From Acidimicrobiia bacterium (lineage in GTDB: Bacteria; Actinomycetota; Acidimicrobiia; Spongiisociales; UBA5794), in assembly GCA_041581135.1 (NCBI GenBank), contig JBFGCM010000001.1:32389-96388 (forward strand): a stretch of 64,000 nt of DNA. Direction: 5' to 3'. The notes beneath the pieces are model-generated. The model worked only from the letters and a program-made list of their open reading frames with translations, ran no database searches and was not told where the DNA came from. Position numbers and translations under genes: made by a program. Below, in pieces: positions 10,765 to 63,530 of the stretch. The stretch's first letter is position 1. Every line of letters starts with the position of its first letter.

Positions 10765-12345
10765 TCAGGAGTCGTCCGCCGCCTGCGTGGAGGACGCGAC
10801 CCGGACGGTGAGGGAATGCAGGCCGGCACCGCCGGCGAAGACGACGACCCCGAACGCAGCGGTGCCGGCGACGATCGCAGCGACGCTGCCGACGAACGAG
10901 TCCGCCGCCACGACAGACCCCGTGATGCCGCCGGCCAGCCACGCCGCCACGCCGGCCACCGCCGCCAGGGGCAGGGCACGGGCCGTGGTGTTCACCACCG
11001 GCCACAGGAACTCCGTACCGGTCCGGCGGTACCAGATCACGGCAAGTGTTGCCGTGTAGGCGAGCAGGGCCAGCGTGCTGGCGAAGGCGACGCCCCGGAT
11101 GCCGAACCCCGCTTGGAGCGCCCAGTACAACGGAAAGGCCAGCACGGTGACCGCCGTTCCGGCTACCACCGGCACCCACATCTCGCGGCGGGCGTAGAAG
11201 CCCCTCGTGATGAGCTGGAGCGCCCCCCAGACGGGTACCGCCAGCGCGTAGAAGAAGAGGGCTGCCGCGGCGGCCTCTGAGTGCTCCGGCAGGAAGTTGC
11301 CGCGCTCGAACAAGGCCCGGATGGATGGCAGCGTGAGGGCGGCGAGGAGCGCTGAAGCGGCGATGCTCAGAGCGATCACGTAGCGGAGCGCCCGCGCCAC
11401 GGTGGCCGCCATCTCCCGGTGCTTGTCCTCGGCGAACAGCCTCGCCAGGAACGGGTAGGCGGCGACCCCGGCCGCCTGCGCGATGACGCCCACCGGAACG
11501 AGCATGGTGCGCCGCGCAACCTGGAGCTGGACGACGGCGCCATCGGACACCAGGTTGCCGAAGGACTTCATGAACTGCTCGTCGAGCACCACGATCGACT
11601 GGCCCACCATCAGTGGTATCGCCAGCAACAGGTACTCGGAGATCACCGGGTGAGCCCAGGGCAACGACCACCGCACTCGCAGGCCGACGCGATGCGCCCC
11701 CCACACCTGGACCAGGAAGTTGCCGACGACGGCGCCACCCAGAACACCCCAGGCGAACCCCTCCGGTGTCGGCGCCTCTCTTCCCAGGTTGAACGCGATG
11801 CCGCCGGCGATGATGCCGACGTTGTAGATGATCGGCGCCAGCGTCGGCACCACGAACTGGCCCTTGGCGTACTGGACGGCCATGAGCAGCGAGCCGAGGA
11901 TGAAGAAGAACTGGGCCGGCAGCACGATCCTGGTCAGTCGCGCTGCCTCGGCGAGCTGATCACCTTCGAAGCGTGGGTACACCAGGTCGAGCACCGGCTC
12001 TGCCACCGCCATGGCGAGCGCAACGAGGACCACCATGGCGAGCCCGACGGGACGGGCGATGGCGGTGAATGCGTCCCATCCGCCTTCCTCGTCGTCTGCG
12101 GCCAGGTAGCGGCTGAGGATGGGGATGAAGGTGATGGCCATGAACCCGCCGGCGAGGAGGTAGTTGATCCAGTCGGCGATGGTGAACGCCGCCTGGTACA
12201 CGTCGCCGGTGGCGGTACCACCGAGGATGGCGGCAGCCACCTGTTCGCGGATGAGACCGATGATCCGTGACAGCAGGACGCCGCCGGCCACGACGGCGGC
12301 GGCCGTTCCCATGCGGCGGCGGTGGAGTCCGGGGGCGGCGGTCAC
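10765..12345 (-). CDS. murJ: Lipid II flippase MurJ (MviN family)
   Basis: Polytopic membrane protein with the MurJ N-terminal pattern LLSRIIGLIREQVAAAILG...DVYQAAFTI. The true start may be the Met at 12312. Confidence 0.85.
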   Translation of the reverse strand: MTAAPGLHRRRMGTAAAVVAGGVLLSRIIGLIREQVAAAILGGTATGDVYQAAFTIADWINYLLAGGFMAITFIPILSRYLAADDEEGGWDAFTAIARPVGLAMVVLVALAMAVAEPVLDLVYPRFEGDQLAEAARLTRIVLPAQFFFILGSLLMAVQYAKGQFVVPTLAPIIYNVGIIAGGIAFNLGREAPTPEGFAWGVLGGAVVGNFLVQVWGAHRVGLRVRWSLPWAHPVISEYLLLAIPLMVGQSIVVLDEQFMKSFGNLVSDGAVVQLQVARRTMLVPVGVIAQAAGVAAYPFLARLFAEDKHREMAATVARALRYVIALSIAASALLAALTLPSIRALFERGNFLPEHSEAAAAALFFYALAVPVWGALQLITRGFYARREMWVPVVAGTAVTVLAFPLYWALQAGFGIRGVAFASTLALLAYTATLAVIWYRRTGTEFLWPVVNTTARALPLAAVAGVAAWLAGGITGSVVAADSFVGSVAAIVAGTAAFGVVVFAGGAGLHSLTVRVASSTQAADDS

Positions 12346-52727: not shown

Positions 52728-52825
52728 GCGACGGTGACCCGGCAGGGCATGGGTGACGTGCCTCGCGACGACATGCCATCGGCCCGATGTGAGTAGGTTT
52801 GTCGGGCGACGGTTGGAGGGTGTCC

Positions 52826-53767
52826 ATGGTGCAGGAACTGGTGCTGGAATGTTCCGGGCTGTCAAAGTCGTACGGGTCCCGCCTGGCCGTCGACGACGTC
52901 GGGTTCTCGATCGCATCCGGTGAGACGTATGGACTGCTCGGACCCAACGGAGCGGGCAAGACCACCAGCATCTCCATGATCGCCGGCTTGCTGGAACGCG
53001 ACGCCGGCACCGTCGTCGTGGCCGGACAGACGCTGGACACCTCGTCCACGGACGCGAAGAAGGCCATCGGCCTCGTACCCCAGGACATCGCCCTGTATCC
53101 GGATCTGACCGCTCGGGAGAATCTGGTCTTCTTCGCCAAGCTCTACGGCCTCGAAGGCAATCTGAAACAACGCGTCGACGAGGTGCTCGCGATCGTGGAG
53201 CTTGCCGAGCGCGCCGGCGACCGGGTCGACGAGTTCTCCGGGGGCATGAAGCGACGCCTCAACATCGGTATCGGATTGCTCCACCATCCCCGGCTCCTCA
53301 TCCTCGACGAGCCGACCGTCGGCGTCGATCCGCAGAGCCGCAACGCCATCCTCGGCAGCGTCGAACAGCTGGGGGAGGAAGGGATGGCAGTGCTGTACAC
53401 GACGCACTACATGGAAGAGGCCGAACGGTTGTGCGACCGGGTGGGGATCATCGACGAGGGCAGGATCATCGCCGAGGGCACCCGCCGCGAGCTGGTGGCG
53501 ATCGTCGGCCAGCGAGATCGGATCCACTTGACCGCAACCGGCGATCTGGAGGCTGTGGCGGCCGCGTTGCGGGGCCATGATGCGGTCGATGATGCGTCCG
53601 GCGCCGATGGCGCCCTGGAGTTGGTGGTGCGCGAAGCATCTGCGGTGCTCCCTGGCCTACTGGCTGCAGCGACCACCGCCGGTGCCACCATCACCGGCGT
53701 GGAGGTGGTCGAGCCCGACCTGGAGGCGGTGTTCCTGCACCTCACCGGCAAGGCACTGCGGGAGTAG
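52826..53767 (+). CDS. ABC transporter ATP-binding protein
   Basis: The ATG is preceded by GGAGGG. Walker A is GPNGAGKTT, the signature is FSGGMKRR and Walker B is LLILDEP. Confidence 0.9.
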   Translation: MVQELVLECSGLSKSYGSRLAVDDVGFSIASGETYGLLGPNGAGKTTSISMIAGLLERDAGTVVVAGQTLDTSSTDAKKAIGLVPQDIALYPDLTARENLVFFAKLYGLEGNLKQRVDEVLAIVELAERAGDRVDEFSGGMKRRLNIGIGLLHHPRLLILDEPTVGVDPQSRNAILGSVEQLGEEGMAVLYTTHYMEEAERLCDRVGIIDEGRIIAEGTRRELVAIVGQRDRIHLTATGDLEAVAAALRGHDAVDDASGADGALELVVREASAVLPGLLAAATTAGATITGVEVVEPDLEAVFLHLTGKALRE

Positions 53768-53769
53768 CC

Positions 53770-54945
53770 GTGCTGCGACCGGCGATGCTCATCGCGGCGA
53801 AAGACCTCAAGCAACGCCTGCGCGACCGCTCCGCGATCGTCTTGGCCGTCGTGGTGCCGTTGGGACTGGCATTCATCCTCAGTGCCACCATCGGTGGTGC
53901 CGGAGAGGGTGACTTCACGATCCCGGTCGCCATCGCCGATCTCGATGGGGGTGACGTCGCCCTCGGTTTCCGTGGGTTGCTGGACGACCTCGAAGCCCAA
54001 GGATTGCTCGAGGTGCAGGAGGCCCCCGACGCCGCCGCCGTGGCGGCGCTCGCCGAGGACGGTGAGGTCTCTGCCGGGTACGTGCTCCCGGCGGGATTCT
54101 CGGTGGCGGCGACCGGATCGGAGCCGACTGCCATCGAGATCAGCGTCAACCCGGAGAGCGACATCGGCGCCGACGTGGCGACGGCGATCGCCCAGGGATT
54201 CGCCAGCGAGGTCACTGCCGTGCAGGTGACGATCTCGGCGGCCCTCGCATCGGGCGCCTCGGGCGACATCGGCGCCCTGATCGACTCCGCCGTGGCGCAG
54301 GGCAGTCCGATCCAGCTCCAAGCCACGGAGCTCGAGGGGGAGGGGGGCTTCGATTTCGCCACCTTCTATGCCATCGGCATCGCCGTATTCTTCGTGTACT
54401 TCACCGTGCAGTTCGGTGTGCTGGGCCTCATCGAGGAGCGGGAGAAGGGCACCATGACCCGACTCATCGCCGCCCCCATCCCGCCGACGATGATCCTGCT
54501 CGGGAAGCTCCTCAGCTCATTCGCCGTCGGTGTCGGGTCGATGATCGTGCTGTGGCTGGCCACCGGGTTCGCCATGGGAGCAGAGTGGGGTGATCCGCTG
54601 GGCGTGGTGGTGATGATCGTCGCTGCGGTGCTCTCGGCGATGGGCATCACCGCGCTGGTGGCCACCTTCGCCCACACCGCAGAGCAAGCCGGCGGCTGGA
54701 GCTCGATCGTTGTCGTGGTCTTGGGTCTCATGGGCGGCACCTTCTTCCCGATCTCCCAGGCGTCGAGTGTCTTGGCGAACATCAGCTTTCTCACGCCGCA
54801 CCGGTGGCTCATGGAGGGGTTCTTGGACCTCTCCGCAGGCGACGGGCTCGTCGATGTCCTGCCGTCAGTCGGCTTCGTAGTGGCCTTCGGCGTGGTCACC
54901 GGCCTCATCGGCCTGCTCCGTGCGCGGCACTTGGTGACGGCGTGA
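53770..54945 (+). CDS. ABC-2 type transporter permease
   Basis: Has an N-terminal TM segment, a large extracytoplasmic loop and a C-terminal multi-TM bundle. Confidence 0.8.
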   Translation: MLRPAMLIAAKDLKQRLRDRSAIVLAVVVPLGLAFILSATIGGAGEGDFTIPVAIADLDGGDVALGFRGLLDDLEAQGLLEVQEAPDAAAVAALAEDGEVSAGYVLPAGFSVAATGSEPTAIEISVNPESDIGADVATAIAQGFASEVTAVQVTISAALASGASGDIGALIDSAVAQGSPIQLQATELEGEGGFDFATFYAIGIAVFFVYFTVQFGVLGLIEEREKGTMTRLIAAPIPPTMILLGKLLSSFAVGVGSMIVLWLATGFAMGAEWGDPLGVVVMIVAAVLSAMGITALVATFAHTAEQAGGWSSIVVVVLGLMGGTFFPISQASSVLANISFLTPHRWLMEGFLDLSAGDGLVDVLPSVGFVVAFGVVTGLIGLLRARHLVTA

Positions 54946-56090
54946 AGAAGGTTCTGGCGATCGCCGGCACGAGTGTGCGCCGCTTGTTCCGCGATCGGCT
55001 GAACATCTTCTTCGTGCTCATCCTGCCGATCCTCCTCATCACTGTCATCGGCATCGTGTTCGGTGGGGGATTCACCCCCCGCATCGGTGTGATCTCGACC
55101 GACACCGGCGATCTCGGTGCGGAGCTGGTCGGCCGCCTCGAGGCGCTCGACTCGATCGCCCTTCTGCCATTCGACGACGTGGAGCAGATGCACAAGGAGA
55201 TCGACCGCGCCAACCTGGAGGCGGGACTCGTCATCCCCGCCGGCTACGACGAGACGCTGCGGTCCGGAGGTACCGTGACCCTGGACTACGCGGCGTTGCC
55301 CCGAGGCGGTGGCTTCGAGGTGCAGAGCCTCGTCTCCGCCGAGATCTCACAGCAAGCCGCCTCCGTGCGCGCTGCACAGTTCGTGTCCGGCGTCACAGAG
55401 GTCGGGTTCGACGACGCACTGGATGTGGCCGAGAACGTCGAGGTCGGCGGCGTCACCGTCACCATCACGGGCGATCAGCGGCCGTCAACCGTCGGCCAGT
55501 TCGACCTTGGGGCGGCCCAGAACCTGGTGCTCTTCATGTTCGTGACGTCGCTTGCCGCATCCGCGGCTTTGATCCAGTCGCGTCGATTCGGGGTGTCCAC
55601 GAGGATGCTGTCCACCCCCACGCCTGCTCGAGTGATCATCGCCGGGGAAACCATGGGCCGGTTCTCGGTGGCACTGGTCCAGGGCCTGTTCATCGCCGTG
55701 GTCGCATCCATCGCCTTCGGCGTCAACTGGGGGTCGTTGGCCGGCGCCGCCGCCGTCGTCGTGGCGTTCGCCCTGGTCGGGACCGGTGCCGCCATGCTCA
55801 TGGGGTCGCTCTTCAGCAATGATCAGCAGGCCGGGGGTTTGGGCGTGTTCATCGGGCTCGGCTTCGGCGCGCTCGGTGGCTGCATGGTGCCGCTGGAGGT
55901 GTTTTCACCCACGATGCGCAACGTGGCACACGTGACGCCACACGCCTGGGCGCTCGACGGCTTCAGCGAACTGATTCGGCGGGATGGCGGGCTCACCGAC
56001 ATCTGGGTGGAGGTGGCGGTGCTCCTGGCTTTCGCCGCGGTGCTGATGGCGCTCGCAACCTGGTCGTTCCGGCGTGCCATCACCGCCTGA
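54942..56090 (+). CDS. ABC-2 type transporter permease (second paralog)
   Basis: GTG at 54942 overlaps the upstream stop. The architecture matches the preceding permease. Confidence 0.8.
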   Translation: MKKVLAIAGTSVRRLFRDRLNIFFVLILPILLITVIGIVFGGGFTPRIGVISTDTGDLGAELVGRLEALDSIALLPFDDVEQMHKEIDRANLEAGLVIPAGYDETLRSGGTVTLDYAALPRGGGFEVQSLVSAEISQQAASVRAAQFVSGVTEVGFDDALDVAENVEVGGVTVTITGDQRPSTVGQFDLGAAQNLVLFMFVTSLAASAALIQSRRFGVSTRMLSTPTPARVIIAGETMGRFSVALVQGLFIAVVASIAFGVNWGSLAGAAAVVVAFALVGTGAAMLMGSLFSNDQQAGGLGVFIGLGFGALGGCMVPLEVFSPTMRNVAHVTPHAWALDGFSELIRRDGGLTDIWVEVAVLLAFAAVLMALATWSFRRAITA

Positions 56091-59776: not shown

Positions 59777-60565
59777 TCAGACACAGATGCCGCCGTCGGT
59801 CACCCCCCGGGCGCACAGCAACGTCTGTTCCACGGTCTTGAGGACGAAGCCCTCGCCGCTCTCGGATGGGGTGCCGAAGACGTGCAGCCGGATCCCCATG
59901 ACGGAGTCGTCACCCAGCCCGACCACGTCGTATGTGACCTCCCCGAGGTCGCCGACGGTCGGCGCCACCGACAGCCGAATCCGGGACGGCGGATCCGTGG
60001 ACGCCAGGGTCTCGGCGATGAGCAGTCCCAGCTCGGTCATGGTCTCGGTCTCGGGGGTCTCACCGAGGATGTCGATGAGCTGGCTCGTGGTGTCGTCGGT
60101 GCCGCCCAGGTAGGCGAGAAAGGCGGCGCTCGCCCAACCGGTGACGCCCTGCCACGTCAGCTCGTACCAGATCGACTGCGGAAGCTGACGGGCGTTGCCG
60201 GTGGCGACGAGATCATCGGTGAGTGGAGGCAGTGTCCCCAGTATCTCCTGGTCGGTTCCCGGCGCGGCACGGAAGTTGAGCACATCGTCATGTGCCACGG
60301 CGACGACGCCCAACACGTCGCCCGCCGCGGGGCCGAAGTCGATTGGCTCGCCGGGAAGGTCGGGCGGTGTCGAGGTGGTCGTCACCGGAGCCGTCGTTGG
60401 CGGCACCGTGGTCGGCGCCACCGTGGTGGGAGTCGGCGGCTCAGTGGTCGGCGCCACGGTGGTGGTCGGAGTGCCCGTGCCGTCGGCACCGCATGCGGCG
60501 ACGATCAGTGCCAGCGCCGTCAAGAGCAGCAGTACCCGTCGCCGACTGCGTATCGGCTCCCTCAT
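59777..60565 (-). CDS. Lipoprotein with Thr/Pro linker and SH3b-like segment
   Basis: The lipobox is LALIVAAC|GA. A PTTT-rich linker follows. The LNFRAAPGTDQEILGTL segment resembles bacterial SH3. Confidence 0.55.
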   Translation of the reverse strand: MREPIRSRRRVLLLLTALALIVAACGADGTGTPTTTVAPTTEPPTPTTVAPTTVPPTTAPVTTTSTPPDLPGEPIDFGPAAGDVLGVVAVAHDDVLNFRAAPGTDQEILGTLPPLTDDLVATGNARQLPQSIWYELTWQGVTGWASAAFLAYLGGTDDTTSQLIDILGETPETETMTELGLLIAETLASTDPPSRIRLSVAPTVGDLGEVTYDVVGLGDDSVMGIRLHVFGTPSESGEGFVLKTVEQTLLCARGVTDGGICV

Positions 60566-60676
60566 CGAAACCCCTCCTGGACGTGGCTCCGTTGGGCCAA
60601 AGGCCGATGCTCTGCACGCGCCCTCGCGGCCTACGCCGAAGGCTACCGCCCGATCCGAACAACGCGAGGTGTTTGC

Positions 60677-62182
60677 TCAGAAGGGTCGCTGGTCGACCCG
60701 GCGGTGGCGCCGGCGCTCGCCGCGCCGGCCTCGGCGCCGTCCGCTGGTGGCGAACACGATGGGTCCCGGGTAGGCATCGACCCGCGCCACGAGCGTGGAG
60801 CGTTCGTCGTCGGTGAGCCGGGTCGTCGGGCGGGTCCCCAACAGGGCATCGGCCTCTTCGAGCAGGATCACCGTCCCTGCCCGGTCGGCGAGGTCGAGCA
60901 ACTCGGCCAGGTTCTTCTCCGTCTCTCCGATGTACTTGCTGGTGATGGCCGTCAGATTGATCCGGTGGACGGTCGCTCCGGTGGCGAGTGCCAGCTCTTC
61001 GGCCTTGGCCGCCGCCAGCTCGGCGGGCAGCGTGAGCCGTTGCTTGTGGAACACCACCGGTGGCTTCGGCTCGCTGACGCCCGCAGCCCGAATCACGCGC
61101 AGCACCACGAACTCCGCCGGCTTCAATGGAGCGAAGCCGACGATGATGACCATACGTCCGGCGTCGATGTCGGCCGGCGTCGTTGTCGACTGGTCACAGC
61201 GAACGAAGAACGCCTCCTTGGGCGTGGTGCCGACGAATGCGCCGCGGTGCCAATGGTCCATGAGGAACGCTTCCACGGCCACACGAACTCGGCTCCACAG
61301 CTCTTCGTCGTTGGCCTCGAACGCCGCCCATTGGGTACCCGATTCGACGCTCCGCTCGAGGTACATGGCGGTCCGGCGCACCGAGACATACTGCACGGCC
61401 GGCTCCGTGGACGACGGTGATGCCAGCGTACGGGCCCCCCAGGCCACGTGGCCGAGGTGGTCGAAGTGCCGGAGTCCGTTGATGCCCTCGATGGTGAGCG
61501 CGCTGTTCTCGTCGTCTGTGAGGCGGTGATCGAGGCCGACCACCCCACGGAGCACGGCATCGACGCCGGCCGGCGCCTTCCACACTCCGGTGTCGGCGTC
61601 GACGCGGGCGTACACACCCGCCATGGTGCCGCTTGCCGCCCGCGTGGTGGACGTATCGCCGCCGAGCTCGTCCGGGATGATCGGGCGGGGCACATACAGC
61701 GCGGCGTGCTCGCTACGCAGTGCGCCGTGGGCAGACAGCCACGCATCGATTGCCTGCACCGTGTCTCGGGTTGCATCCACTTGGGGTGGGTCCACGATGA
61801 GGAACGCGCGGTTGGAGGCGCAGAGGGCCTGCGCCGCCATGATCACGCCGGCGGCGGGGGCGTCGTGCAACGCCGCGGTGTCGGGGACACACAAGATTCC
61901 GAAGTCGTGACCGCCCAGGGCGTCGAGAGCGGCAACCAGGTCGAGTCCGCCGTCGGCGTCGGCCCGCACGATCATCGCGATGGCCCCGCCGTTGGTGAAG
62001 AACTGGCGAACCGCGTACGCCAGCTCGTGGTCGGCGGCCGGCCCGAACGCCGCCTCGAACTCGGTGAACGAGGTGACGCGCGTGGGCACGCCGATCGGAC
62101 CCGTTTCGGCCCAGCCGACGAAGGCGGCGATCGCGCTGTCAGTGGCGGTGATCGCTGGAGGCGGTGACGCGATGTCGGGCAT
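60677..62182 (-). CDS. Contractile-tail sheath protein fused to a degenerate, P-loop-less AAA+ fragment (possible relic of a contractile injection system)
   Basis: Trimmed to MPDIASPPP (ATGA overlap with the upstream gene). Sheath motifs are AAFVGWAETGP, TGVWKAPAG, WGARTL, YVSVRRT and PLKPAEFVV. The last ~115 aa are HRINLTAITSKYIGETEKNLAELLDLADRAGTVILLEEADALLG, the AAA region after Walker A as in eCIS ATPases. The ORF then ends in an Arg-rich tail. Confidence 0.7.
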   Translation of the reverse strand: MPDIASPPPAITATDSAIAAFVGWAETGPIGVPTRVTSFTEFEAAFGPAADHELAYAVRQFFTNGGAIAMIVRADADGGLDLVAALDALGGHDFGILCVPDTAALHDAPAAGVIMAAQALCASNRAFLIVDPPQVDATRDTVQAIDAWLSAHGALRSEHAALYVPRPIIPDELGGDTSTTRAASGTMAGVYARVDADTGVWKAPAGVDAVLRGVVGLDHRLTDDENSALTIEGINGLRHFDHLGHVAWGARTLASPSSTEPAVQYVSVRRTAMYLERSVESGTQWAAFEANDEELWSRVRVAVEAFLMDHWHRGAFVGTTPKEAFFVRCDQSTTTPADIDAGRMVIIVGFAPLKPAEFVVLRVIRAAGVSEPKPPVVFHKQRLTLPAELAAAKAEELALATGATVHRINLTAITSKYIGETEKNLAELLDLADRAGTVILLEEADALLGTRPTTRLTDDERSTLVARVDAYPGPIVFATSGRRRGRRGERRRHRRVDQRPF

Positions 62183-62484
62183 CAGTCGAAGACGGCCACC
62201 ACGTCGAGATTCTCGTATTTGGGCTCGCCGTCGATGAGTGCCATCAGCTTCTGCGCCCATTCTTGGGTCTGGGGTCGATCGTTGTTCTTCTGAGCGTCCT
62301 CCCACGTCGTGAAGTCGGCCTGGACCACATACCTGCCGGGCTTGTCACGGAATGCCAGGACGCGGCCCCCCTGATAGCCGGGAGCGTCGGAGGCGTCATT
62401 GCGGGTCCAGTCTCGGAGCAGCTCGACGAGTGCTTCCGGGTCGCTGCAGTTGACGATGACGTGCTGGGTGAACATCGTTCCCAT
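62182..62484 (-). CDS. Small alpha+beta (ABM/Dabb-like) protein, unknown function
   Basis: 100 aa (MFTQHVIVNCSDPEALVELLRDW...). Its stop overlaps the sheath-fusion start. The family call is tentative. Confidence 0.45.
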   Translation of the reverse strand: MGTMFTQHVIVNCSDPEALVELLRDWTRNDASDAPGYQGGRVLAFRDKPGRYVVQADFTTWEDAQKNNDRPQTQEWAQKLMALIDGEPKYENLDVVAVFD

Positions 62485-62591
62485 GGGATGTGCCCTTTCG
62501 CGAGCTTCCTGGTTGAACGCTACGCGATGACCACACTTGGCGGCAGGGGTTGTCTAGGGTCTGTCTGGCAAACCACGGTGAAAGAGGGCCC

Positions 62592-63530
62592 GTGACCGAC
62601 CTCGCAGCTGATGTCACGCCAACCCGCACGGCACCACCGCTGAAGCCAAAACGGACATGGCGGGGGTCGGGCAAGGCGTACCTGTACCTGCTGCCCACGT
62701 TCTTGGTGCTGTTCGTGTTCGTGTACTTCCCGATCTACGACTCGGCCCGCCTCAGCCTCAATCGGGTCGCTCCGTTCGGTGGTGTCGAGCGTTTCGTCGG
62801 ATTCGAGAACTACACCACCTTGCTCGGCAGCGCTGAGTTCTGGAACACCGTCCGGGTGTCGCTGTTCTTCATGATCGGCACCGTGCCCGTCGGCATCGGA
62901 CTGGCCGTGGCCGTTGCCCTGCTGCTGGCGTATCCGCTGCAGCGAATGAACTGGCTCTATCGCATGCTCATCTTCGTGCCGGTCGTCATCTCGGGCGCTG
63001 TGGCGGGGACGATCTTCCGGCTGCTGTACAACCCCGTCGTCGGCTTCTTCAACCACTGGCTGGGTTTGATAGGAGTCGATGGACCCAACTGGCTCACGAG
63101 TCGCACCTGGGCGCTGTTTGCCGTGACCGTGACGGTGATGTGGCGACAGCTCGGCTTCAACGTGATCATCGCCCTGGCTGGGCTGCAGAACATCGACGAG
63201 CAGTACTACGAGGCGGCCAAGGTCGACGGTGCCGGGCCCTTCCGGCGCATCCGCCACATCACGCTTCCTCTGCTGTCCCCCACGTTGTTCTTCCTCGTCA
63301 TCGTCAATGTGATCATCAGCTTGCAGGCCTTCGCCGAGATCAACATCCTCACCGATGGAGGTCCCGGCCAAGCCACCACCAACCTCGTCTACTCGGTGTT
63401 CGTAGACGCCTTCGTCGGCACGTCCATGCGAGGGTTCGCCTCGGCTCAGGCGTTCATGCTGGCGATCATGATCATCGCCGTCTCGTTCATTCAGTTCCGG
63501 GGTCTCGGCAAGAAGGTGCACTACCAGTGA
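62592..63530 (+). CDS. Carbohydrate ABC transporter permease (MalF/UgpA-like)
   Basis: GTG at 62592 is preceded by AAGAGGG. The EAA loop is YYEAAKVDGAGPFRRIRHITLPLL. Confidence 0.85.
   Translation: MTDLAADVTPTRTAPPLKPKRTWRGSGKAYLYLLPTFLVLFVFVYFPIYDSARLSLNRVAPFGGVERFVGFENYTTLLGSAEFWNTVRVSLFFMIGTVPVGIGLAVAVALLLAYPLQRMNWLYRMLIFVPVVISGAVAGTIFRLLYNPVVGFFNHWLGLIGVDGPNWLTSRTWALFAVTVTVMWRQLGFNVIIALAGLQNIDEQYYEAAKVDGAGPFRRIRHITLPLLSPTLFFLVIVNVIISLQAFAEINILTDGGPGQATTNLVYSVFVDAFVGTSMRGFASAQAFMLAIMIIAVSFIQFRGLGKKVHYQ

Follow-up and report, generated by a model that had tools for sequence, protein, structure and literature searches.

We asked what a single gene in a 64,000-nt stretch of an Acidimicrobiia genome (contig JBFGCM010000001.1; the whole stretch analyzed is referred to here as the window) can be: an open reading frame (ORF) that carries a contractile sheath protein, as found in phage tails and contractile injection systems (CISs), fused to a fragment of an AAA+ ATPase. 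To our knowledge, CIS sheaths and CIS ATPases are known solely as parts of large multigene machines. Is the gene the scar of a CIS locus that lost its interior, or is it a protein in its own right? A sequence-only reading of the window had described an in-frame fusion of a sheath to an AAA+ fragment without Walker A, which was borne out by Pfam searches with both halves, by an AlphaFold2 (AF2) model and by independent contigs; it had favored, as the simplest account, a deletion that welded together the two ends of a resident CIS locus. We found a genuine, intact gene made of a CIS-derived sheath core and an AAA fragment without nucleotide-binding elements. It is probably not a fresh deletion scar, because fusions like it apparently have several origins in unrelated bacteria and selection appears to maintain them. 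We put the probability that the gene encodes a maintained, functional, catalytically dead fusion protein at roughly 55%. The class of standalone fusions to which it belongs was, as far as we found, apparently undescribed before.

The gene is read from the reverse strand and is laid out as follows.

60677..62182 (-), whole fusion ORF, 501 aa plus stop, start ATG (MPDIASPP...), from the ORF list, Pfam and independent contigs

61085..62182 (-), sheath core, residues 1–366, with two conserved sheath domains, from AF2, Foldseek, PDB profile matches and alignments

61025..61084 (-), linker, residues 367–386, predicted disordered, from the low model confidence of residues 370–380 and from alignments

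61016..61024 (-), place where the gene lacks a segment (remainder of helix alpha0, strand beta1 and Walker A), from the alignment gap, the start of the Pfam match and independent contigs

60743..61024 (-), AAA+ core remnant, residues 387–480, from Pfam, alignments, AF2 and motif scoring

60680..60742 (-), Arg-rich C-terminal tail, residues 481–501, from the alignment to the family hidden Markov model (HMM), three-frame translation and low model confidence

61565-61588, 61424-61441 and 61103-61129 (-), motifs GVWKAPAG, WGARTL and PLKPAEFVV within the sheath core

60908-60934 and 60836-60868 (-), motifs 'YIGETEKNL' and Walker B-like 'ILLEEADALLG' within the AAA remnant

The fusion sequence is not an assembly artifact. 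Independent metagenome contigs from other runs span the junction, the whole gene and its 3' end with no indels, among them contigs of 2252 nt (60709-62700), 942 nt (60400-61108) and 1311 nt (61091-62401), and the stretch occurs in marine, sediment, soil and mangrove metagenome runs. GC content at third codon positions is 0.84–0.88 in every segment of the gene, and its codon usage agrees with that of the host. Matching of contigs at 85% likeness yielded no more than fragments, along with cross-matches at the GETEKN and DEAD motifs. Contig depth rose 10- to 100-fold at 60856-60983 (the 'GETEKNL ... DEAD' segment) in every metagenome; this is a mapping artifact produced by cross-matches of other AAA genes at <95% identity, not amplification.

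The sheath half belongs to the contractile tail/CIS sheath family, with both of its domains clearing curated Pfam cutoffs: Phage_sheath_1 (PF04984) at residues 78–252 (E = 1.4e-8, 35.2 bits against a cutoff of 31.4) and Phage_sheath_1C (PF17482) at residues 260–363 (E = 9e-11, 42.2 bits against 26.9). An AF2 model was built from an alignment of 145 sequences, with a mean predicted local distance difference test (pLDDT) score of 86.6; an earlier run with 15 sequences (pLDDT 58.6) was discarded as unusable. Residues 10–366 were modeled with a pLDDT of ~90 or above and adopt the sheath core fold. Foldseek aligned this part with the Streptomyces coelicolor CIS sheath 9gts_2A (E = 4e-30, target-normalized template modeling [TM] score 0.87, 38% identity), and the matches that came after the S. 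coelicolor chains were Anabaena, Photorhabdus virulence cassette (PVC), antifeeding prophage (AFP) and pyocin sheaths. The best PDB profile matches were to S. coelicolor sheath chains (8bky, 8bl4), and Pvc2 and Afp2 were matched as well. A full-length sheath had been read at residues ~1–385; the core is indeed complete, and its end lies near residue 366 instead of 385. The insertion domain is absent, and alignments showed that the N-terminal 'PGVYVEE' motif is missing. The C-terminal 'PLKPAEFVV' is kept, with the AAA remnant beyond it and no tube gene nearby. In relatives, a helix beginning 'L.LP' lies ahead of the AAA core, and the end of the linker here ('LTLPAEL') aligns with its start.

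The C-terminal part aligned with AAA+ ATPases, as had been claimed (PF00004, residues 394–471, E = 7e-9), over profile positions 15–95 of 131 only. Because the match begins at position 15, the P-loop segment is absent, and with it the Walker A motif (GxxxxGK[ST]) that follows beta1 in classic-clade AAA+ proteins. Relatives have ~30–45 extra residues at this site, which complete helix alpha0 and supply strand beta1 and the Walker A P-loop, and a gap is seen there in both alignments (columns ~560–603 of the alignment of the window protein with its relatives). The elements that remain in the model are alpha1, beta2, alpha2, beta3 (Walker B), alpha3 and beta4 only; pLDDT is 70–86 for residues 387–477 and <50 for residues 370–380 and 484–501. 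Walker B (hhhhDE) reads 'ILLEEAD', with Glu, not Asp, as the first acidic residue; sensor-1 on beta4 reads 'FATS' instead of 'LATN', the Asn having been replaced by Ser; and ~5–7 residues of the family motif 'SHDRYAN' are also absent. The Arg-rich tail sits where the family has its Arg-finger/beta5 end, is highly diverged and is predicted to be disordered, so that the model contains neither beta5 nor an Arg finger. This tail had looked out of frame. It is in frame: the family HMM aligns to position 170 of ~173 at residue 500, and neither of the other frames resembles the family C terminus in a three-frame translation, which together rule out a frameshift. The lid domain is absent, with the ORF stopping 1 residue past the profile end and canonical ATPases running ~85 residues longer. 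Identity to CIS-locus ATPases is ~28%–41%, and NCBIfam returned only weak partial AAA matches (Cdc48, PAN, IetA), far under their cutoffs. Because beta1 and the P-loop have been lost, sensor-1 has changed and beta5 is replaced by a disordered tail, the protein is predicted from its motifs and model to be unable to bind or hydrolyze ATP in the AAA+ manner.

We then asked how widely this architecture occurs. A protein search with the window fusion found nothing above 54% identity, the nearest non-fused sheath being ~54% identical, and recovered from many metagenomes many proteins of 513–605 aa with the same Pfam triplet (39%–44% identity over 94%–99% of the query). The window protein aligned end to end with 14 fusions at 40%–44% identity; they have in common a sheath core and, beyond a variable linker, an AAA core ending right after the Arg-finger/beta5 region. 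In a profile search of 1.84 billion representative proteins, ~15 clusters matched the full fusion profile, compared with >15,000 sheaths. Nearly all fusions are without the sheath insertion domain and the ATPase lid. The window gene shows the full set of class features, namely a sheath core without the insertion domain, a linker and a CIS-type AAA core without the lid, located away from CIS genes. It differs from most fusions in having no beta1/P-loop, and the only other such case seen was a copy in Ornithinimicrobium.

Among the 80 loci listed in a scan of species-representative genomes, fusions were carried by the cultured Ornithinimicrobium sediminis and by Achromobacter xylosoxidans. The former (strain EGI L100131; L055:9989-11410) encodes a 473-aa fusion without beta1 and the P-loop and with a Walker B of 'FDKAD'. 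In the latter (strain B_1; L026:9272-11571), the sheath ORF stops at 11116, the AAA core follows in a different frame as far as 11571, and Walker A is degenerate ('WDTGSQSR'); this is either a frameshifted fusion of the P0022 type or a sequencing error. All fusion loci examined (L001, L003, L004, L026, L055, L167, L168 and the P0004 contig) were standalone with unrelated neighbors: no CIS gene was found within 10 kb of any of those outside the window, and no gene neighbor was conserved among them. No fusion was found on viral contigs among 80 IMG/VR loci, and a metagenome scan seeded with P0094 gave no close relatives and no new fusions. A 369-aa HATPase_c protein adjoins the P0094/P0033-type fusion in two loci (L167:1885-2994 and L168:300-1409), on opposite sides, and is not in the P0004 contig. 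Fusion genes of this kind are currently annotated as 'phage tail sheath protein FI'. Full-text searches and two CIS surveys, which together cover the literature incompletely and yield absence of evidence only, contained no description of sheath–ATPase fusions.

Across the class, the ORFs survive under purifying selection even as their ATPase motifs erode. An intact Walker A is present in nine of 31 fusions, compared with 215 of 223 locus ATPases; the 'DE' of Walker B is kept in 25 of 31 versus all 223, and the sensor-1 Asn in 15 of 31 versus 218 of 223. The fusions P0094 and P0033 both have a degenerate Walker A ('G[SN]DRAAHT'), and the ratio of nonsynonymous to synonymous substitution rates (dN/dS) between them, a single pair with small counts, is 0.27 overall, the sheath half being at 0.23 and the AAA half at 0.39. 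Fusion lineages remain intact through 25%–60% protein divergence, their truncations converge on the core–lid boundary, and the insertion domain is excised cleanly. The window gene itself stays open for 501 codons at 68% GC, where we estimate that random stops would occur about every 46 codons. Its population SNPs, called at seven sites in other metagenomes, comprise five synonymous and two nonsynonymous changes (M115V, T414I), giving by our arithmetic a binomial P of ~0.02 against the ~73% nonsynonymous sites expected under neutrality. With the SNPs of the window gene at 5:2 and the dN/dS of the relative pair at 0.27, the alternative that the sequence-only reading had named, a real fusion protein, fits better than its preferred scar.

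Where did the two halves originate? The nearest relatives of the AAA half are CIS-locus ATPases, encoded ~3–4 kb downstream of a sheath gene on the same strand; in one fusion, P0044, the AAA half shares 58%–64% identity with such ATPases. Two such loci have the gene order sheath, tube, unknown genes, Pvc16_N, WHD, AAA, eCIS_core, tube, baseplate. Across 105 locus ORFs, the median start of the AAA core is residue 438, and ~85 residues (the lid) come after it; sheath-first fusions, apart from P0128, P0144 and the fragment P0266, end 0–22 residues past the AAA core in short tails that differ from one fusion to the next. Some fusions hold traces of genes that lie in between. P0144 (750 aa) has a tube-like segment ('IDPYKHFRFRIRAGDRVVAGF...') between sheath and AAA and ~100 residues C-terminal to the AAA core, P0128 (622 aa) is a sheath–AAA protein with a similar C-terminal extension, and the linker of P0124 holds 'YDPYKGFKFRV', which from general knowledge we take to be the N terminus of a CIS tube protein. 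Judged by their sequences, these three look like intermediate stages of operon collapse. Because both halves come from CIS-locus genes and tube remnants are present in P0124 and P0144, it is plausible that the fusions originated by an old deletion between the sheath and ATPase genes of a CIS operon.

To examine whether the fusions share one origin, we relied on a simple method, distance and neighbor-joining (NJ) analyses of 414 sheath cores and 254 AAA cores with 100 bootstraps, in which the fusions fell in ~15 lineages. P0060/P0122 join a non-fused sheath with a bootstrap of 99, and P0022 does likewise with 84–86; their distances to non-fused sheaths (0.36–0.44) are under the 10th percentile (0.52) of canonical-to-canonical distances. 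An insertion domain of ~390 aa is cleanly absent from P0022, which to either side of the gap is ~70% identical to a Pseudomonas fluorescens-type sheath and which continues beyond the normal sheath C terminus into the AAA part. The point at which the AAA part starts varies by lineage: at a tube fossil, at a 'W.DL.LP' helix, within alpha0, just before beta1, or, in the window gene and the Ornithinimicrobium copy, after the P-loop. The window gene groups weakly with the Ornithinimicrobium copy, P0169, P0237, P0054 and P0239 in the NJ tree, and the P-loop loss of the Ornithinimicrobium copy is either shared with the window gene or convergent. Apparently, then, several independent origins converged on one architecture. 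A single origin of all fusions was disfavored by these analyses, but deep nodes of the NJ trees are without support. Fusions in the reverse order were also found (P0126, P0141 and P0151), consisting of a lid-less AAA core, 10–28 residues and then a full sheath core. Their junction resembles the natural C terminus of a sheath–AAA protein read through into the natural N terminus of a sheath, and would fit an origin from tandem sheath–AAA copies.

The surroundings of the window gene hold no other part of such a system. In line with the earlier observation that tube, baseplate, spike and tape-measure genes are lacking nearby, a BLASTP comparison with all the ORFs of 82 canonical CIS loci and Pfam searches of the neighbors detected no other CIS gene in the 64 kb, and the only recurrent match of the 82-loci ORFs was the fusion gene itself. 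The tube, baseplate (gp25 and gp6/J-like), spike, terminator (Pvc16) and ATPase genes that together make up a CIS locus do not occur as a set within the window. The neighbors are housekeeping genes: DapD-like, M20 peptidase, FHA, ABC-2 transporter, AhpC-like, GMC oxidoreductase, luciferase-like monooxygenase, SH3 lipoprotein and sugar ABC permease proteins. One ORF overlaps the start of the fusion gene.

62182..62484 (-), upstream 100-aa ABM/YgiN-like ORF, from sequence and from homologs 49%–78% identical

Its TGA stop and the ATG of the fusion share 1 nt (TGATG, not the ATGA reported before), which suggests co-transcription and translational coupling of the two ORFs. The upstream ORF has no Pfam match at E ≤ 1 and 26 homologs at the identities given, some of them labeled quinol monooxygenase YgiN or Acidimicrobiia, which points to an Acidimicrobiia-like actinobacterium as the source of the window. 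On their contigs these homologs are never followed by a sheath gene and their contexts differ; sheath fusions do not have the upstream ORF as a conserved partner. Of the co-translation with a small upstream protein that had been considered, the overlap stands and a conserved partnership does not. The contexts of the homologs are unrelated and carry no information on an ancestral CIS at the window site. A promoter and terminator scan found nothing exceeding chance. Farther away, the ABC-2 transporter genes at 52793-56087 (+) share up to 67% protein identity with genes in L030, a Nitriliruptorales metagenome-assembled genome in which a canonical CIS sheath is also nearby; this agrees with an actinobacterial source of the window. 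Within the SH3 lipoprotein gene (59777-60565, -), one metagenome contig has a back-joint and 33 extra letters at 60407-60463, indicating copy-number variation of a short repeat in this Thr/Pro-rich region.

Among known systems, the S. coelicolor CIS sheath (CISSc; 8bky, 8bl4, 9gts, 9gtp) has the same two-domain core fold (target-normalized TM score 0.80–0.87, 33%–38% identity). Unlike it, the window protein is without the insertion domain and PGVYVEE, carries a C-terminal AAA remnant and has no adjacent tube or baseplate genes. The short extracellular CIS (eCIS) sheaths Afp2 and Pvc2 (~354 aa; 6rao, 6j0b) are core-only and similar in size to window residues 1–366, at 24%–29% identity, but are unfused operon members that polymerize around a tube. 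Homology links the AAA core of the fusions to the ATPase Afp15/Pvc15/Cis15, a protein of ~660–700 aa with a long N-terminal region, a core and a lid that is encoded in a CIS locus beside Pvc16_N, WHD and eCIS_core genes; the window protein keeps ~94 of the core residues and has lost the N-terminal region of ~400 aa, the P-loop, beta1, beta5 and the lid. A conceptual parallel to the fusion is the type VI secretion system, in which the AAA+ unfoldase ClpV/TssH acts on the contractile sheath TssBC; there the two are separate proteins and the ATPase is active. Afp15 is listed as the TssH analog by Chen et al. (PMC6899500), and Pvc15 has been described as an effector-loading ATPase (PMC11495950, PMC9054023). 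PADLOC matched the AAA core weakly to the anti-phage ATPase IetA (E = 6e-5 for the window protein and 1e-21 for other fusions). IetA systems have no sheath domain, and the window has no IetS protease partner. An identity as IetAS was ruled out (18.5 bits against an NCBIfam cutoff of 510, no protease neighbor), and a defense system based on the PADLOC matches to IetA/TRIP13 was rejected as generic classic-clade AAA similarity.

Several findings weigh against a maintained function for the window gene. Two of the five core strands are lacking from the modeled AAA remnant, which may not fold independently. The remnant is also fast-evolving: its mean identity to other fusions is 35%, compared with 42%–47% for comparably distant members, and its distance to the nearest AAA is 1.02, compared with a 90th percentile of 0.68 for canonical locus ATPases. 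Canonical polymerization of the sheath appears doubtful because 'PGVYVEE' is absent from the window copy and three relatives (the Ornithinimicrobium copy, P0169 and P0237). Members of the class do decay, as seen in the Achromobacter copy, frameshifted at the junction, and in the Ornithinimicrobium copy, with its scrambled, Arg-rich and non-homologous C terminus; fusion lineages are rare (1–4 sequences per 90% cluster); and no RNA run was found for the window gene. The tests of selection are small, the SNP test having seven sites and the dN/dS one pair. Because the deep NJ nodes are unsupported, how often the fusions arose independently is uncertain, and an appearance of polyphyly could also result from gene conversion with resident CIS genes.

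Such findings could mean that the fusions are recurrent by-products of CIS-locus collapse with no function of their own, and the window copy a late-stage, slowly decaying relic. Its P-loop deletion, altered sensor-1, disordered tail and fast-evolving remnant are in keeping with this, as are the class-wide loss of catalytic motifs, the damaged Achromobacter and Ornithinimicrobium copies, the rare and small lineages and the lack of a conserved gene neighbor. Random decay, however, would not favor truncations at the core–lid boundary and clean excision of the insertion domain, and it sits poorly with an ORF open far beyond the expected spacing of stops, with the predominance of synonymous SNPs, with lineages intact over such large divergence, and with a low dN/dS in another lineage that extends to the AAA half despite its degenerate Walker A. 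We consider a relic rather unlikely on this evidence, yet a serious rival. A different proposal is an accessory subunit of a CIS encoded elsewhere in the genome, which would cap, nucleate or regulate sheath assembly or tether an ATPase-binding surface. Each fusion's sheath half is nearer to the non-fused CIS sheaths of similar bacteria than to other fusions, a pattern that co-evolution or gene conversion with a resident CIS would yield, and the occurrence of both domain orders suggests, by Rosetta-stone logic, a physical interaction of the sheath with the CIS ATPase core. The N-terminal motif is lost in the window copy, though, and the absence of CIS genes from the 64 kb, and from the 10 kb around every other fusion, also speaks against such a role, which strikes us as improbable. 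The least credible account, in our view very improbable, is a recent scar formed at the window locus when a deletion removed the interior of a resident CIS and joined its ends. Both halves are CIS-derived, their order and strand fit such a deletion, and events of this kind do happen, as the tube remnants of P0124 and P0144 show. But the ATPase, which had been placed at the 3' end of the locus, lies mid-locus in the relevant CIS loci with baseplate genes beyond it; one deletion could not have removed the whole interior because these genes would survive, and no flanking CIS remnants were found. Three further precise deletions would be required to explain the missing insertion domain and lid. Nor does a recent event agree with the ~54% identity of the nearest non-fused sheath, the high divergence of the AAA half, the host-like codon usage or the translational coupling to an unrelated upstream gene. 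The interior deletion survives as a plausible, old origin within some CIS operon and is not supported as a simple or recent scar at this locus, where the 64 kb hold no further CIS remnant; the architecture of the gene recurs, away from CIS genes, in ~15 lineages.

For the maintained, catalytically dead fusion protein that we favor, the following history would fit. Deletions inside CIS operons, apparently several, would have joined the two-domain sheath core, minus its insertion domain, to the alpha/beta core of the CIS-locus AAA+ ATPase, with the ~400-residue N-terminal region and the lid of the ATPase removed. The products would then have persisted as isolated genes while their catalytic motifs decayed, and the window copy would be the extreme, most degenerate case of the class. 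Any activity it has would reside in the intact sheath fold and be non-enzymatic, through self-association or the binding of partners, with the AAA remnant serving as a passive appendage or an interaction surface. It is probably expressed jointly with the upstream ABM-like gene through the TGATG overlap.

The contact partner of the CIS ATPase is still debated, and in PVC the ATPase has been linked to effector loading. Fusions in both orders hint, as Rosetta stones, that the CIS ATPase core contacts the sheath, and the recurrence of a standalone fusion in either order predicts direct sheath–ATPase contact in canonical machines. For annotation, such genes could be taken for prophage or CIS remnants. 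A more far-reaching and only tentative suggestion is that several phyla have repeatedly and convergently reduced a whole CIS to one gene with its own function, a domesticated protein derived from a phage tail. If this is true, candidate roles would include a tube-less sheath-like polymer and a decoy or capping subunit that disturbs foreign or resident contractile particles, and the fusions would, as Rosetta stones, testify to direct binding between the CIS ATPase core and the sheath. The loss of motifs under purifying selection suggests that phage-tail parts may have been domesticated into single-gene proteins with a role other than injection.

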